Source of the DNA: a virus
IMG/VR virus record: IMGVR_UViG_3300042868_005761
Coordinates: 112,232 to 176,231 of that record
Strand: one strand, 5' to 3'
DNA: 64,000 nt
This document shows, in pieces, positions 40,377 through 47,208 of the stretch (its first letter is position 1; the number at the start of each line of letters is the position of its first letter). The translations under genes were made by a program, and so were the position numbers. The notes beneath the pieces are model-generated. The model saw nothing but the letters and a program-made list of their open reading frames with translations. It searched no databases and was not told where the DNA came from.

Positions 40377-42791
40377 TTAGCCACCTATACCAGGAGAAGG
40401 ATACGCGCCAAGGGGAGGAGTCTCTTTCTTACTCCAGACAATAGGAGCCATAATCTTTCTTAGTTCAGACCTCTTCTTGACAGTTACTTCTTCAGTCTTG
40501 TCATATAAGCCATCCTCACCCATCTTAGCAATAGTAAGAATAGTAGCAGGATCTTCCTCTGATGCATCTACACTTAAACCAGGACCATGAGTAACAGTTC
40601 CTTTGCTATGCATAGCATCAATGACTCCATATCCTTCTTTCATTTCAGCTGCGTCGTCTTGCTCACCAAGTGAACCTGAACTAACACCAACTTCATTACC
40701 CTTGCTATCAAGGCGATAGGAAACAAAGTCACCTACAGCAAAAGTTGGCGTTGACGGAGTTGTATAAGTTTTCTCAGGAGTATAAGTATCTTCGACTGAA
40801 GACTTAAAACTTTCCTCAATGGCAGTCTCAACAACTGGCTCATTGTAAACAAAGTCACCCATAACCCAAGGACCCTTAACTGAATCTTCAGTTCTCATAC
40901 GTTCAATTTGTGCAGCTTTGGCATTTGCCCAGCTCTTGCCGCCATCACCACCCCAAAGATCCCAAGCAATACGACCAGGAGAGGGAAAGCCTTCTTCGCC
41001 TTGGTTGAAGCCAGAAGCCTTCTTGTCAACCTCATGACGTGCAAAGAAACTCTTCATACGCATAACGGTAGAAGGAGAAAGCTCTTTCTTGTTCATAATG
41101 TCTCTAGCGCGAGCTACTCCAACGCCGGTACCACCGCGCTTGAACTCTGCACGCCACTCAAGGGCACGCTTAGCAGCTGAAGCCATACCAGGTGTTGGAA
41201 CAAATCCCTCAGCGGCATCATCAATAGTAATAGTTTTTACCATCTCAGAAAACATTTCAGCCGACATATCGTCAGCTAACTCCAGATTGAAATTACTAAC
41301 TAGTAACTTCTTGATAGAGTCTAATAGTGATTGGCTATCAAGCTCAAACTTTGCAAGCTTCTCGTCTGCGATAGCTTTGCCAGATCGTAGTTCTTCAAGC
41401 TCTGCAATTACCTCAGGAGCAGGAATAGATTTTAATTTAATGTATTCGTCAACAATTGAAAGAATTTCTTTCTTATTGTCTTCTGATAGTACGGTGGGCA
41501 TTTCTTGCTCCTCTTGATTAATTAAGTTAGTTTGGTCTTCCATAGGCTCTGTTTTGTTTGCAGAAACTAATCCATCTGGGATAACAGCAAATCTGCAGTA
41601 ACCATCAGGCTCTATAGTTTGGGAAATAATTTTACAACGATTTTCGCTAGCATGAAGAGCGCAGTTGCCGCACTTAACGCCAATACTGAGATTCTCATTC
41701 TCTGGGCCACTTTCATAGCCAACCCAAATACCAGGAGCCTTATCAAGAGGTCCAACTTTATTAGCAAGAGTCATCAGTGAGTCAGCTAGAGCCTTTTCCT
41801 CTTCTGAGAGTTGACTGTAAAGATCAACATAATCGTCTGCTATTTCGACTGGCACTGTCGCAACAGGACCATTGTCAAAGCTAGCCATAATCTCTGAGTC
41901 GCTAATATCAGTAACCGCATTCTTAAAGCAATCGGTGACAACCATAGTAGTCTTGAAGTTATCTAGGTATTGCTGAAGAGCGTCGCCGCCAACCTCTTTG
42001 TAATTCATTACTCGTGCATGAACATCAGCAGGATGTGTAACGTAAGCATAGCCACGATAGCGAAGACCGCTTGGGACGCCATAGGCTTTGGTCCCATCAA
42101 TATCGTCGCCAATGTCCCATTCCATCTCATCAGTCTTGTAAGACTTACCGCTAATAGAATCGTAAAGATCATTAGGAGTCATTTCAACACTAACTGTAAG
42201 ATAGCGCCCATCAAGAGTTTTCTCTACAGCCTCTGGATCTGTAACAAGTCCCTTGACAAGTACCCATCCAAGGCCCTCAAAATCCTCATCGGTCATCATT
42301 CCAGACTTGGCAAGCTTCTTCATATAGGGAGCCATAGCAACGTCAGGAGCCTTAAGTATAAGGCCATCCTTGATCATTGTAGAACTAACATTATAAGCAG
42401 CCTTAGGGTTGTCTACCCAAGTCCCACCCATGGCACGACCAACTGCACCAACCTCTCTATTCTCAATTTTCTTACCATCAACAATAGCAACTTCCTTATG
42501 CATAGGTTTAATAGGAATATTGTATGGACTAGTAAGTGTAGGAATTGCATCTTTTAAATCAGATGGCATATAGATAAGGTTATTCTGAGTAGGTCTCATA
42601 CCGTGAGTAACCTTTGTAAGAGTTACTAGACCAACCTTGTTCTCTGCCACGCCATCACTAATAAAGTATTTAAAATCAAGAAAGTGTGGGCTCTTCTTAT
42701 CCCAAACTTCATGGGTAAAATCGCCCTTAATACTATTAACAAAATAGTCCTGAACAATACCTTCTTGTAATAGTCTCTTACTTATCTTCAT
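40377..42791 (-). CDS. Prohead protease/scaffold, multidomain
   Basis: 804 aa between portal and capsid genes; THG, YLTVSV and YVTHPAD herpes/HK97-type protease motifs, followed by a CxxC-C-C motif, a Trp-rich helical domain and an SH3-like tail. Confidence 0.75.
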   Translation of the reverse strand: MKISKRLLQEGIVQDYFVNSIKGDFTHEVWDKKSPHFLDFKYFISDGVAENKVGLVTLTKVTHGMRPTQNNLIYMPSDLKDAIPTLTSPYNIPIKPMHKEVAIVDGKKIENREVGAVGRAMGGTWVDNPKAAYNVSSTMIKDGLILKAPDVAMAPYMKKLAKSGMMTDEDFEGLGWVLVKGLVTDPEAVEKTLDGRYLTVSVEMTPNDLYDSISGKSYKTDEMEWDIGDDIDGTKAYGVPSGLRYRGYAYVTHPADVHARVMNYKEVGGDALQQYLDNFKTTMVVTDCFKNAVTDISDSEIMASFDNGPVATVPVEIADDYVDLYSQLSEEEKALADSLMTLANKVGPLDKAPGIWVGYESGPENENLSIGVKCGNCALHASENRCKIISQTIEPDGYCRFAVIPDGLVSANKTEPMEDQTNLINQEEQEMPTVLSEDNKKEILSIVDEYIKLKSIPAPEVIAELEELRSGKAIADEKLAKFELDSQSLLDSIKKLLVSNFNLELADDMSAEMFSEMVKTITIDDAAEGFVPTPGMASAAKRALEWRAEFKRGGTGVGVARARDIMNKKELSPSTVMRMKSFFARHEVDKKASGFNQGEEGFPSPGRIAWDLWGGDGGKSWANAKAAQIERMRTEDSVKGPWVMGDFVYNEPVVETAIEESFKSSVEDTYTPEKTYTTPSTPTFAVGDFVSYRLDSKGNEVGVSSGSLGEQDDAAEMKEGYGVIDAMHSKGTVTHGPGLSVDASEEDPATILTIAKMGEDGLYDKTEEVTVKKRSELRKIMAPIVWSKKETPPLGAYPSPGIGG

Positions 42792-43290
42792 TAGCCTTCC
42801 TTATAATGACTTTGCTATTAGGATGATCAGGCGGTAAATCATAATACTTACTATCTGAGATTTTTCTATTATCTATTATAGACTGACTACTTTGATTATA
42901 TACCTGGTATGATTCTTCGCCGCTATCCTTTAACGCATTGAAAACACCCCAGTTATAACTTCTCATTCTTTCTGTCTCATAGATAGTCATCATCCTATGA
43001 CCAATAGTCTTAGCTGTGTCAGTTATAGTATTGCCTTGCCGATTGCGCATCTCAATATGTAACTTATCTATAAAGAACTTCTGAACCTTCAACTGGAATT
43101 CTATGTTGCCAGTATGAGTCTCATTAGTTAAGTTAGAAGAGTCAGCATACTCAGAGTAGCCTTTTATATAAGCCTTAATACTGTTATCTTTGAGCATAAC
43201 AGAGAAACGCTCAAAAGCGGCATCAACGGTAAAATTAGGCTGAACGTCGTAGTCAGCCTTCTCCTTGAGATGACTAACTAATCCATTCAC
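42778..43290 (-). CDS. MuF/SPP1 gp7-like head morphogenesis domain (frame open upstream to 43428; probably fused to portal)
   Basis: ETERMRSYNWG and LPPDHPNS resemble the MuF TE..RAYN and PPxHPNC motifs; the annotated GTG has a poorly spaced RBS. Confidence 0.55.
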   Translation of the reverse strand: MNGLVSHLKEKADYDVQPNFTVDAAFERFSVMLKDNSIKAYIKGYSEYADSSNLTNETHTGNIEFQLKVQKFFIDKLHIEMRNRQGNTITDTAKTIGHRMMTIYETERMRSYNWGVFNALKDSGEESYQVYNQSSQSIIDNRKISDSKYYDLPPDHPNSKVIIRKANEDK

Positions 43291-43412
43291 ATCCTCTCGA
43301 TATTCATCAAAGTCTAGGATACTGTTTGTAACTAGACTTCCTGGCCCACTTTTTGTGCCATGTTGATTTGATGGTCTAACGGCATTTGCATTAGCTTTAC
43401 CGCTAGGAGACG

Positions 43413-44942
43413 CTATCGAATTTTTTTTTTAACAGCAGGTTTCTCAGAGGACTTAGTAGCCATCTTATTTTGTAATTCTCTTGCCTTGTTTAGATCAGAA
43501 GAAGACATAGGTGTTTTGTCACTTCTAGCAGAGGTTTCTGCAATAGGTGACATTGCGTTAGCTCCAAGTTTCAATAGCTCTTGGGCCTCTGTAATCATCT
43601 TGTAATAAGAGTGATCCCAGTCATCTTCCTGAGCAGCAGAAAGACCAATACGATCTCTGAGTTCATCATGACTAATAGCACTATTCAACCAAAGTTGAAT
43701 TGCTGCATTCTCTTTCTTTATTTGGTTCTCAACATCTATCTCTTTGAATCTTAAAGCAACTTTATTATCTGGGTCTAGCCAGTCAAAGCTATTCTCTTCG
43801 GTGCTTTCTTGTAAAAGAGGAACAATCAAATGAGCATAGATTTGTTCCTCGAAAACAAGCTGATCACTCTTTACTGAGTTGATAAGACTACTAGACATAG
43901 TAGCAGCGGTTGATCTGTTAGCTGTATCGCCTTCTCCAATATCAACAGTAGATAAACCAAGTGCAGCAAGAACACGCTTCTTGAAATAATCAAGGTAGCC
44001 CTCTGCTCTAAGCGAACGACCTTCTGCTCCAATCATTTTAATTTCATGACGCTCAGGGGTAACAAAGAAACCTTCAGGAGGTTGGTTATTAATAACCTCA
44101 GTAACCATACTAATCTCATCTCTACCGTCTGGTAGAATAGTAGCAGGCATAGCGTCAGTGCCAATCTTGTACTGGACAATTGGAAAGATACTTTGGTGAA
44201 GTAGAACTTCTACATCTGTTTCAATGCGACGCAAAGCTTTGATATCTTCAATTGCTGCGCTGCATCTTGGAGTACCAACAATAAAACCTTCAAGCTTGTT
44301 AACATGAAAATGTATGATCTCACTAGGCTCATATACAGTAGTAGGACGAGTATTTTCCGTCCAGTCCTCTTCGCTGTATTGTCGATACTTTATGGGTTGT
44401 TTAAGGTCGTTGACCTTAACCTGGATCATACTGGTAGGAAGTACATGAAGTGAGCTAATTGGGGCTATCTTGCGCCCTTTAGAGTCTGTTCTAGTATAGC
44501 CACCAGATGTCTTGTCATTGCGTTTGACGAGAACAAAACAATTACTATATCTAATGATATTCTTGGCTATGTCAGTTATGAATTGGCGAGGTGTAGTCCG
44601 GCTGACATAACAAACTTCCTTCAAACGGCGCTCTATGTACTCTACAAGATCTCGGTCTTTACCTATAATCTCGTAACCTTCTTTCATAAATAAAGATAAC
44701 TTTTTGTCAAAGCTAATTTGCAAGTAAGCTTCAATGGTGGCAATCTTGTCTATCTCTTTAAAGTCATGCTCTAGCTTTTGCCAGTCATTCATAAAGTATG
44801 GACGAGTTGTTCTATAGTTAAATACTGGATCTTTTGTTCTTTCTAAACTTGGCGCAGGTATCTTACTCTCCGCATCATCTATTGTTTGAATAGAAGATGC
44901 AAGATTCTTTAGATTAATAACTTGTGCTTTTAATTTAAACAT
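43413..44942 (-). CDS. Portal protein
   Basis: 509 aa; IIRYSNCFV, EIIHFH...GTP, DIKALRRIE, YFKKRVLAALG, GEGDTANRSTA; lies between terminase and protease. Confidence 0.85.
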   Translation of the reverse strand: MFKLKAQVINLKNLASSIQTIDDAESKIPAPSLERTKDPVFNYRTTRPYFMNDWQKLEHDFKEIDKIATIEAYLQISFDKKLSLFMKEGYEIIGKDRDLVEYIERRLKEVCYVSRTTPRQFITDIAKNIIRYSNCFVLVKRNDKTSGGYTRTDSKGRKIAPISSLHVLPTSMIQVKVNDLKQPIKYRQYSEEDWTENTRPTTVYEPSEIIHFHVNKLEGFIVGTPRCSAAIEDIKALRRIETDVEVLLHQSIFPIVQYKIGTDAMPATILPDGRDEISMVTEVINNQPPEGFFVTPERHEIKMIGAEGRSLRAEGYLDYFKKRVLAALGLSTVDIGEGDTANRSTAATMSSSLINSVKSDQLVFEEQIYAHLIVPLLQESTEENSFDWLDPDNKVALRFKEIDVENQIKKENAAIQLWLNSAISHDELRDRIGLSAAQEDDWDHSYYKMITEAQELLKLGANAMSPIAETSARSDKTPMSSSDLNKARELQNKMATKSSEKPAVKKKIR

Positions 44943-47208
44943 TGTCTACGTTTGCTCCTAATGCAACTCGTCTCCAGAAATCCAGACTTTCACCTTTGCT
45001 TATTATAGACGATTTTGCTCTATCGCAATTAGTAAGATTAAATCTACTATCAGTTGCAGGATTTATTAAGTATCTAATCGGCTTTGTCTTTTTGTTACTC
45101 TTGTTATTCCTTGCCTTTTCCTGGTAAACAGGTTGGCTATTGAAGTACTCCTTCATTGGGAAGTCACTATTAGGATCCGGATCCCAGGGATCCCATGGGC
45201 TTTCATTTGTTAGGTTACCATTATCATCTTTCATAGGAATGCAAGGTTCAATTCCCTTAGAGGTTGCTGCTTTGTAAACTCCTAGAGCAAAAGCTAGAGT
45301 CTGAGACAAGGCCATAATCTTTGTACAGAGAACAATATTGGTATCAGCTTGAGTACCCATCAAAGCCTTCAAGGCATCAAGGCCATACTTTACAATGTCT
45401 GACTGAGAAGAAACCCAATCAATAAAGTCATATATTACAGACTTAATCATTTCGATTGAGTCAAGAGCATCACCTTTACCAAAGAGAGGATTGGTTATTG
45501 TTGATAGGAACTTCATACCATTGTTATTCAATGCTCCTTCTAGAGCTGTCCCTACAGCTTGCTGATCTACTCCAATCTCACCATTGCTATTGTTAAAGTA
45601 TGTTTGGCTAAACTTTGTAAGTGCGCTTATTTTGCTTTCATCTGCTGTGCCTGAATTCACCCAGTTTGAGAGTTCTTCAGTTGTAAAGCCATATTGCTTA
45701 CCAGCCTTATCAATATCTTGGACACTGATAAGACTATTAATAGTACACAAAGCATAGTTGGGCAAAGGGCTAATGTTTGCACGAATACTCATTTGTAAGA
45801 GATTTAGAAGAGGCTCAACAATTCCACGCAAAATAAGATCTCTTAGGAAATTTAATCCAAAGTTTGCATTTGCAGAGAATATCTCAGACCAAGTGTAGAC
45901 TAGAAGTCCACCTAGACTTGCAATAACAAATAATAACTCAAGCGGACACAAAGAGCCAAGTCGGAGAAGAGAACAGTAATTAGCTTTTAACTGAAACTCA
46001 ATGTCACTGGCAAACCTTATTTTTGCAAGAAGAGCTTTCGTAATTTGTAATTGTTCTTTAAGTTTTACTTCGAGATCAATACCAAATACAAAGTCACTCC
46101 CTTTAAATATGTCCCCCGGACCTTTGATATCTCCTAACTTATTTGCAAGTTTAGTCCACTCCCCACCAAAGCAATCATAACAGCCTTCCCAGTTTGTAAC
46201 TAGGTCTCCTAGGTTCTTAGCAGGTTCTCCTATAGCTCTTGCCTTGACATTTGACGGCTCTTTGCCTCTCATTAGAACGTCAATAGCGCTATTTTGCTTG
46301 TCTATGCCATTGAGGGTACTCTCTATACCATGAACGACTTCCCTAGTCTTCTGTGCCTCATTAAACAAAGGTATTAGTCCAACTTTTGCACTAATATTAT
46401 CTTCACTTAGTTTTATTTCATTTTGAGCTAAAGCTGTTTCAAGTCCGAACATATCTCTAAAAATATCAAATTCTTCATAGACTTTAAATCTTTTATCTTC
46501 TTCTAGGTTATTAAGCCAAACAGATGCCATCTTTCCAAAAGTCTTTTTAGGCTCAGGGTCATAGTCTTTCTTAACAGTTTTTTCTGCTTGATATGCATAA
46601 GCTAATTTAATTACTTCACCATACTTTGAATTAAGATCCTCTTCTTCTTCCATGCCAACCATTGGATCATTTTTTATATCTTTTGTAGCAGACCTTAATT
46701 GATTGTCAGCTTTGAGCTCTCGGTATAGTTTTGTGTACCTTTTAAGTTCTTGCATTTCCTGATAGGTTAACTTTCCTTTCTGGTGAGTAGGAAATAGGAA
46801 GTCTGCAAGTAAACATTGATCATGGTCTTCTTTTTCATAAGCAACGCTATAGTTTATATCTTCTAGTCTTTCTGCTGTGACTTTCAAGAAATTATCCAGG
46901 ATAGCAGCTTGTCTCTTTGCTTCTTCTCTGTTCTCCTTGCGCAAGGCTTCTGCTGCAAGAGAGTCAATGTTCTTTCCCTTGCCGTTGTAAAGCTTAGTAT
47001 CTAAGATTTGATTGTATTCTTTATTAGGCTCTATGCTAGAAAGAAGATCTTTAATAAGACCATTCAGTTCACTCTTAGAAAGCTTATTTACATCTTTGTT
47101 TTCTAGTCTTTCATTGTTACCATCAGGACTAAGTTCTTCTAGTGTAATATCTTGTTGTGTATTTGTTATCGAAAAGATTTGTCTTTTCTGTAAAGGAAGT
47201 CTTTCCAT
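44935..47208 (-). CDS. Hypothetical virion-associated protein
   Basis: 757-aa ORF overlapping the portal start; charged N-terminal half, Cys-containing hydrophobic C-terminal half. Confidence 0.6.
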   Translation of the reverse strand: MERLPLQKRQIFSITNTQQDITLEELSPDGNNERLENKDVNKLSKSELNGLIKDLLSSIEPNKEYNQILDTKLYNGKGKNIDSLAAEALRKENREEAKRQAAILDNFLKVTAERLEDINYSVAYEKEDHDQCLLADFLFPTHQKGKLTYQEMQELKRYTKLYRELKADNQLRSATKDIKNDPMVGMEEEEDLNSKYGEVIKLAYAYQAEKTVKKDYDPEPKKTFGKMASVWLNNLEEDKRFKVYEEFDIFRDMFGLETALAQNEIKLSEDNISAKVGLIPLFNEAQKTREVVHGIESTLNGIDKQNSAIDVLMRGKEPSNVKARAIGEPAKNLGDLVTNWEGCYDCFGGEWTKLANKLGDIKGPGDIFKGSDFVFGIDLEVKLKEQLQITKALLAKIRFASDIEFQLKANYCSLLRLGSLCPLELLFVIASLGGLLVYTWSEIFSANANFGLNFLRDLILRGIVEPLLNLLQMSIRANISPLPNYALCTINSLISVQDIDKAGKQYGFTTEELSNWVNSGTADESKISALTKFSQTYFNNSNGEIGVDQQAVGTALEGALNNNGMKFLSTITNPLFGKGDALDSIEMIKSVIYDFIDWVSSQSDIVKYGLDALKALMGTQADTNIVLCTKIMALSQTLAFALGVYKAATSKGIEPCIPMKDDNGNLTNESPWDPWDPDPNSDFPMKEYFNSQPVYQEKARNNKSNKKTKPIRYLINPATDSRFNLTNCDRAKSSIISKGESLDFWRRVALGANVDNV

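Follow-up and report, generated by a model that had tools for sequence, protein, structure and literature searches.

What is encoded where a phage portal gene runs into a homopolymer, stops, and is followed in another frame by a second conserved domain: a misassembled gene, two adjacent genes, or one gene decoded in two ways? This question is raised by a locus in a 64-kb window (i.e., the whole stretch of DNA analyzed here) of the IMG/VR virus record IMGVR_UViG_3300042868_005761, which comprises 176,231 bases and is estimated to be complete. A portal gene of 509 codons ends just past a run of 10 A's (A10), and the -1 frame that opens at this run continues into a MuF-like domain. On the basis of the comparisons presented below, programmed recoding of some kind very probably takes place at the A-run, yielding a short portal and a long portal-MuF protein. 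RNA polymerase slippage is, with modest confidence, its main route.

Conservation of the run and the frame break

All coordinates are positions in the window, and the junction genes all lie on the minus strand. The features discussed here are as follows.

43413..44942, minus strand: portal gene in the zero frame (509 amino acids [aa]; stop codon TAG at 43413-43415), from the list of open reading frames (ORFs), PHROG, Pfam, and tblastn
43421..43430, minus strand: A10 run and putative slip site, beginning at codon position 1 of the portal frame and including the heptamer A_AAA_AAA
43420..43431, minus strand: T-A10-T block, the sole contiguous invariant block of the junction in the DNA alignment (A1; 15 distinct sequences)
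42778..43428, minus strand: -1-frame continuation of 216 codons plus a stop (42778-42780), which together with the portal would form a 721-aa portal-MuF protein
42778..43290, minus strand: annotated ORF of 170 aa with a GTG start
43288..43290, minus strand: the GTG used as a start by gene callers, with AGGA just 1 nucleotide (nt) upstream; not a start codon in L014 and L013, and different in the second subclade
43291..43422, minus strand: run-to-GTG stretch, with a -1-frame coding signature and no conserved start; mostly a disordered linker by AlphaFold2
43351..43377, minus strand: RPSNQHGTK motif in the linker, from a motif search and alignments with distant portals
42796..43308, minus strand: predicted folded MuF/SPP1 gp7-like domain (helical bundle and three-stranded sheet; motifs TExxRxYNWG and PPDHPNS), from alignment A4, AlphaFold2, BFVD, and Pfam

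The portal ORF ends GTT AAA AAA AAA ATT CGA TAG. The -1 frame is closed upstream by a TAA at 43429-43431 (i.e., the T before the run and its first two A's), and reading in this frame from 43428 begins KKNSIASPSGKANANAVRPSNQHGTK. The portal 3' end, the position of the run, the TAA before it, and the open -1 frame had all been reported in a preliminary description of the window, and every one of these statements was confirmed on the minus strand, as was the tight AGGA-to-GTG spacing at the 170-aa ORF.

By sequence comparison, the 509-aa protein is a phage portal. It matches the portal family phrog_9232 over residues 53 to 498 (E = 1.7e-36). Its score against Pfam Phage_portal (PF04860) is 29.3 bits, under the cut-off of 39.1; two homologues, the portals of Edson (49.6 bits) and KLEB27-3 (51.8 bits), score above it. 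The nearest cultured relatives found by tblastn are portals of large phages (i.e., Bacillus phages 0305phi8-36, Edson, WH1, and KLEB27-3; Moorella phage MTATph1; and Acinetobacter phage ME3).

The A10 run is the longest homopolymer of the window, the runners-up being three T8 runs. Taken by itself, it is within chance, with 1.3 such runs expected per 64-kb window and at least one in 58 of 100 shuffles. What goes beyond chance is how the run is conserved in relatives, and the case for a slip site rests on this conservation only.

An IMG/VR scan with the portal identified 25 loci, 19 of which span the junction and provide 14 further distinct sequences (72 to 99% portal identity). All 14 carry exactly A10, starting at codon position 1 of the portal frame and flanked by T on either side, with the downstream domain in the -1 frame. 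Two more assemblies (L038 and L117) again have T-A10-T. Deeper lineages (L032, L033, and L034) were found via short "stand-alone" homologues; their portals are 53 to 64% identical to that of the window and their C-terminal domains 29 to 42%. The junction is T-A9-G in L032 and C-A10-G in L033 and L034, where the zero frame reads CAA AAA AAA AAG and a stop follows directly. In each of the three, the -1 frame runs on into (T/S)PxNQ(H/F) and the domain. Counted together, the independent assemblies supply 18 further distinct junction sequences, 17 with A10 and one (L032) with A9; none of the 18 has an in-frame run length, and all keep the -1 offset. Across this set, portal identity to the window is 53 to 99% (whole portals only), and the flanks diverge. 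The A-run and the frame break are thus conserved in relatives, a point on which the preliminary description had proposed that its reading be checked.

L033 and L034 represent the deepest frame-broken lineage. Their junctions (2305-2321 and 1641-1657, respectively) carry a heptamer of the Escherichia coli dnaX type abutting TAG or TAA, and the run has the same length as in the window's clade in a different codon phase.

The sequence around the run is far more variable. The upstream linker is scarcely alignable in alignment A1; the codon before the run in the close set specifies Val, Ile, Thr, or Ser and always ends in T; and the zero-frame stop lies 5 nt past the run in one subclade and 38 nt past it in the other, the zero-frame tail not being conserved. 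The window portal uses AAA 18 times and AAG 21 times for Lys. Lys is conserved across the 12 close sequences in 24 other portal columns, not one of which is AAA throughout, and the codon is invariant in just 43 of 324 columns with a conserved amino acid. Given these counts, the three consecutive invariant AAA codons and the flanking A and T's are left unexplained by the protein. As judged from the alignments, the run is conserved at the nucleotide level, beyond the coding need of the protein.

These data bear directly on a sequencing or assembly error in the homopolymer, which the preliminary description had considered equally possible; the true genome would then carry A11 and a single 721-aa portal-MuF gene. 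Homopolymer runs are error-prone, and distant relatives do have an uninterrupted fusion. However, in all of about 20 independent assemblies (IMG/VR, JGI, ENA, and Logan; different samples and pipelines), the run is A10, or A9 in one case, the -1 offset is the same, and in none does the run length restore the frame. Furthermore, the surrounding sequence differs between the assemblies, so they are not copies of one error. We regard this alternative as refuted, with a negligible probability left to it.

The translated linker and the MuF-like domain

The -1 frame appears to be translated well before the annotated start. Variable columns number 26, 15, and 43 at the first, second, and third positions of the 47 codons running from the A-run to the GTG, and pairwise codon differences in the core (VRPxNQHGTKxxPGSLV) are 798 synonymous versus 236 nonsynonymous. 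The rest of the domain is likewise under purifying selection; of its 167 codons, 132 vary at the third position and 45 at the second. The first in-frame start varies by lineage. Most of the main subclade has GTG at codon 47, the second subclade has ATG at that codon, two lineages have TTG or ATG at codon 38, and L014 has none before codon 78. Judged by these substitution patterns, the 46 codons that lie between the run and the GTG are under coding constraint. They contain no conserved start, and the GTG at 43288..43290 is probably not a real start.

This stretch is an obstacle to an arrangement of two separate genes, in which MuF translation would have a start of its own (the GTG or ATG near codon 47) or depend on termination-reinitiation and the A-run would be a Lys-rich tail. 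Gene callers do annotate stand-alone proteins of 143 to 179 aa, and a portal gene followed by a separate MuF gene is the usual phage layout (e.g., Hardycor1; PMC7911831). Nevertheless, the 46 codons upstream of the start have a coding signature in the same frame and hold RPxNQHGTK, a motif that lies inside the single portal ORF of distant relatives where it was located. Moreover, the start is missing in L014 and varies in type or position elsewhere, AGGA is too close to the GTG at 1 nt, no start codon lies near the portal stop, and the nucleotide-level invariance of the run is left unexplained. We consider two separate genes highly improbable.

We assign a similarly low probability to phase variation at the DNA level, in which replication slippage would maintain a mixture of A10 and A11 genomes and the long portal would come from the A11 subpopulation. 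A10 runs would be expected to have high one-base indel rates, and consensus assemblies would hide a minority genotype. However, none of the approximately 20 assemblies has an A11 consensus, and A10 virions would be without the RPxNQHGTK segment, whose dispensability in most particles fits its conservation badly.

In the AlphaFold2 model, residues 1 to 35 have predicted local distance difference test (pLDDT) scores below 50. The presence of a conserved motif in a linker predicted to be disordered suggests a binding or cleavage site.

RPxNQHGTK is kept across the wider portal family (the window, L003, L005, L027-L030, and L039-L112). It is also present in portals of approximately 541 to 650 aa that end soon past the motif and have no MuF domain, so the motif belongs to the portal itself. 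In the window's clade, it would occur only in the slipped (i.e., long) product.

The nature of the downstream domain was examined with profiles, motifs, and structure predictions. On its own, the -1 ORF of the window matched no Pfam or PHROG model, and this includes Pfam Phage_Mu_F (PF04233; gathering score, 29.6 bits). Phage_Mu_F was matched by 5 of 27 aligned homologues (best E = 3.4e-4; all sub-threshold) and was the sole Pfam family matched by more than two of them; the tail of the KLEB27-3 portal scored 17.3 bits, which is also sub-threshold. PHROG matches on the domain side are to "head morphogenesis" and "minor head protein" families. The 27-sequence alignment (A4) contains YRxxxIxxTExxRxYNWG and PPxHPN(C/S), with CxxC and C-x-C in many relatives. 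The succession of TE..R.YN.G and CxxC...PP.HPNC.C is what we take to be the C-terminal signature of the Phage_Mu_F/SPP1 gp7 family. The window has TExxRxYNWG and PPDHPN, and all four Cys (CxxC...HPNCxC) are replaced in its clade; the Bacillus phages (e.g., Edson), L043-L045, L053, and L112 retain them. The lost Cys residues were probably a metal site. The Cys loss (42796-42900, minus strand, in the window) extends to the nearest fused relatives, the P0009 group, with Ser, Thr, or Val in their place.

The AlphaFold2 model is confident (pLDDT, 81; predicted template modeling score, 0.76) and combines a helical bundle with a small sheet, its first ~35 residues being disordered. Foldseek searches of BFVD with this model mainly retrieved models labeled "minor capsid protein" or "phage head morphogenesis domain," many of them at E = 1e-3 to 3e-2 (probability of about 1.0; TM score, 0.33 to 0.5), the top match being a 682-aa protein (E = 3e-7) that is probably a related portal-MuF. 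Among solved structures, the alignment profile of the domain found nothing meaningful in PDB sequences (E > 0.4), Foldseek found no PDB entry at E = 1e-3 or better, and VIA-align against 48,161 chains returned only generic helical bundles (Z ≤ 8), a result that carries no information when the domain itself is helical. This domain is encoded immediately after the portal, and the 176-kb genome holds no other Phage_Mu_F match. By remote homology, it is best described as a divergent MuF/SPP1 gp7-like domain rather than as a demonstrated member of the family. The earlier label "MuF-like" holds at that level through the sub-threshold matches of the homologues; it finds no support in curated models matched by the window's own domain.

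Ancestry of the break and the proposed decoding

Outside the frame-broken clade, the same domain is part of the portal. In tblastn searches, the -1 ORF matches the C-terminal part of a single 682-aa portal ORF in Edson and WH1, and in phmmer searches it corresponds to the C-terminal ~215 residues of metagenomic portals that are uninterrupted and 712 to 725 aa long. A virtual 721-aa fusion is colinear with the 648- to 716-aa portals of Edson, WH1, KLEB27-3, MTATph1, and 0305phi8-36. A metagenome scan added 80 more loci, mostly with 33 to 42% portal identity. In these distant loci, every NQHG located by the motif search shares the frame of the portal, and PPxHP is in frame except for one match that lies kilobases past the portal ORF. 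The distant portals are single ORFs, mostly of 541 to 886 aa, and some end soon after NQHG without the domain. Among the more distant relatives, approximately 85 portal ORFs were scanned, and no run of at least nine A's was present.

A maximum-likelihood portal tree places the 11 frame-broken genes in a single clade (100/100 support) that falls within the fused lineages. Because the run is absent from distant fused portals and the broken clade is nested among them, the run and the break go together and the fused state is ancestral. On this tree, the run and the frame break arose jointly, once, from a fused ancestor and are kept down to 53% portal identity. The preliminary description had held that uninterrupted fusions with no A-run in relatives would speak against its reading. 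Such fusions exist, though only among distant outgroups (≤45% portal identity), which makes the fusion ancestral and not the break an error.

A reverse layout resembling that of Thermus dnaX, with an in-frame A-run in the linker of the fused relatives, was rejected, no run of A9 or longer being found there. P0016 was rejected as a short homologue; it belongs to an in-frame fusion, and the short call is a gene-calling artifact. Another short homologue, P0017, lies at a contig end. The portal of Acinetobacter phage ME3 (L004; 530 aa) has a degenerate NQY linker motif and no MuF-like domain, and it forms a very long branch (2.73) in the portal tree.

We propose that the ancestor had a single-ORF portal-MuF fusion and that the ancestor of the clade gained A10 together with a one-base offset in the linker. 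Standard decoding would stop two codons past the run and release the 509-aa portal. A slip on the run would instead lead through the disordered linker with RPSNQHGTK into the MuF/SPP1 gp7-like domain. In this slip, either RNA polymerase would add one A to the mRNA or the ribosome would move back one base on A_AAA_AAA; one added A or a -1 shift gives ...KKK-NSIASPSG... and the 721-aa product. As read from the sequence, an mRNA with one A fewer would encode just five more residues before a stop. The portal C-terminus faces the capsid interior. The portal dodecamer would thus be mixed, with fewer than 12 linker-MuF units on the interior side. The comparisons establish the site, its conservation, translation of the start-less stretch, and the fused ancestry; which slip occurs, how much of each product is made, and how many MuF units the ring holds are what we infer here. 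That two products arise via a slip at the A-run, as first suggested in the preliminary description, is supported by the conserved run and break, the start-less translated stretch, and the in-frame domain in outgroups; its further suggestion, that MuF would be substoichiometric on the portal ring, is reasonable.

The same observations hint at why the offset has persisted. A10 runs should be hot spots for one-base indels, so in-frame revertants would be expected to arise often and to spread if they were fitter. The lack of any in-frame revertant among the assemblies points to selection for the out-of-frame state, i.e., for both products or for their ratio.

The step at which the slip would occur is less certain. 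A purely ribosomal, programmed -1 frameshift on A_AAA_AAA (A_AAA_AAG in L033 and L034), with mRNA of uniform length, agrees with the presence of a correctly phased X_XXY_YYZ heptamer in every lineage, namely A_AAA_AAA in the window, the close clade, and L032, and the classical A_AAA_AAG in L033 and L034 with the zero-frame stop at once after it. The window also has a local hairpin. However, this hairpin begins 14 nt past the run, which exceeds the usual spacing of 5 to 9 nt, has an unremarkable fold energy (z = -1.5), and is missing in the second subclade. No downstream structure is conserved (RNAalifold consensus, -1.7 kcal/mol; no helix adjoining the run), and upstream of the run neither a Shine-Dalgarno-like element nor a hairpin is conserved, the folds there being inconsistent and unremarkable. 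All 9 or 10 A's are kept, not merely the seven of a heptamer, and they are kept in two codon phases. We consider a purely ribosomal mechanism possible and rather unlikely.

Bacterial RNA polymerase slips efficiently on runs of nine A's or T's without context features, according to the review by Atkins et al. (2016; PMC5009743). We favor polymerase slippage over ribosomal -1 frameshifting, because the full 9 to 10 A's are kept and not just the heptamer, because the run length is the same in two codon phases (xxT AAA AAA AAA ATT versus CAA AAA AAA AAG), and because no flanking RNA element is conserved. Both mechanisms could contribute.

Several points weigh against programmed recoding with polymerase slippage as its main route. 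The slip, the two products, and their ratio are predictions from the DNA. With a valid -1 heptamer in every lineage, the ribosomal route could be the main one. The fused relatives presumably carry MuF on all twelve subunits, so that the need for substoichiometry is not self-evident. Finally, the window's MuF domain alone matches no curated model and has lost the four Cys of its relatives.

Two long genes adjoin the locus. Upstream, a 757-aa gene (44935-47208, minus strand) shares 8 nt with the start of the portal gene and is without a meaningful match in Pfam or PHROG; L032, a deeper relative, has a gene of ~707 aa in the same position that also overlaps the portal start. An 804-aa gene (40377-42791, minus strand) directly follows the MuF domain and occupies the slot of the protease/scaffold gene of 0305phi8-36. 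Its sole match is phrog_2859 (function unknown; residues 532 to 631), and no Pfam protease model matched it.

Implications and known systems

For annotation, the recoding that we propose means that gene callers split the locus into a portal and a bogus 143- to 179-aa "hypothetical protein" with an arbitrary start, the true products being a short and a long portal. If it is true, a portal gene joins the short list of phage structural genes that use programmed slippage, and one run length in two codon phases offers a clean natural case for separating polymerase from ribosome mechanisms. It would also make an assembly question testable, i.e., how many MuF domains a portal ring needs or tolerates, and why one lineage went from twelve fixed copies to a tunable fraction. 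We see an even chance that slippage on poly-A at portal/MuF junctions has evolved repeatedly, as a general means by which tailed phages set how many of the twelve portal subunits bear a MuF domain inside the capsid, and that this ~176-kb phage clade invented it independently from a fused ancestor. Alongside the G/GT shift of tail chaperones, phage structural genes would then have a second widespread recoding signal, one that currently goes unannotated. Programmed slippage on A-runs is well known, as are -1 frameshifts in genes for the tail chaperones and capsids of phages (PMC5009743; PMC10885494). No published recoding site in a portal gene was found in a literature search that included a portion of the review by Atkins et al. 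(2016; PMC5009743), in which portals are not mentioned.

The closest mechanistic parallel is dnaX of Thermus thermophilus (tau/gamma), described in that review as a case of productive programmed transcriptional slippage on an A9 run (PMC5009743). The two systems share a run of 9 to 10 A's within a coding region, no conserved flanking stimulator, and two proteins with a common N-terminal part that differ by a C-terminal domain. They differ in direction, since the zero frame of T. thermophilus dnaX encodes the long product and slippage truncates it, whereas here the zero frame is short and the slip would add a domain. They also differ in that the Thermus protein is a clamp-loader subunit; the present one is a phage portal whose two forms are predicted from its sequence.

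E. coli dnaX and genes of the phage lambda G/GT type use -1 ribosomal frameshifts (Xu, Hendrix & Duda 2004, as cited in PMC7302621 and PMC10885494). The present locus resembles both in its X_XXY_YYZ heptamer (A_AAA_AAA or A_AAA_AAG), and it resembles lambda G/GT in encoding a conserved short/long pair of structural or assembly proteins of tailed phages, the long form arising from a -1 shift shortly before the short ORF ends. Unlike both, it has no conserved downstream hairpin or upstream Shine-Dalgarno-like element, and it conserves the whole 10-mer and not only a heptamer. Unlike in lambda G/GT, the genes concerned are portal and MuF instead of tail chaperones.

Portal-MuF fusion genes also occur in Microbacterium phages (subclusters EA3, EA5, and EA8 and cluster EB; PMC7302621). 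There, as in the slip product predicted here, a MuF-like minor head domain is attached to the portal C-terminus in one polypeptide. The Microbacterium fusions are nonetheless plain in-frame genes with no recoding reported, and they belong to small siphoviruses with unrelated portal lineages. Within the window's own portal family (tblastn E = 1e-42 to 1e-61), 0305phi8-36 (gp122; 648 aa), Edson, WH1, KLEB27-3, and MTATph1 share the PxNQHGTK linker motif, and the last four share the C-terminal MuF-like domain. Unlike the window's portal, all five are single uninterrupted ORFs with no long A-run, and the MuF domain of these relatives retains the cysteines of CxxC...HPNCxC, which are gone from the window's clade.

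The SPP1 gp6/gp7 pair provides a functional comparison. There, as here, a MuF-family protein is associated with the portal and encoded directly after it. Unlike the products proposed here, gp6 and gp7 come from separate genes with separate starts and associate noncovalently, and the homology of the window's domain to gp7 is remote (i.e., below the Pfam threshold). SPP1 gp7 is present in only a few copies per capsid, and a stoichiometry of this kind is what a slip site at the portal/MuF junction would set.

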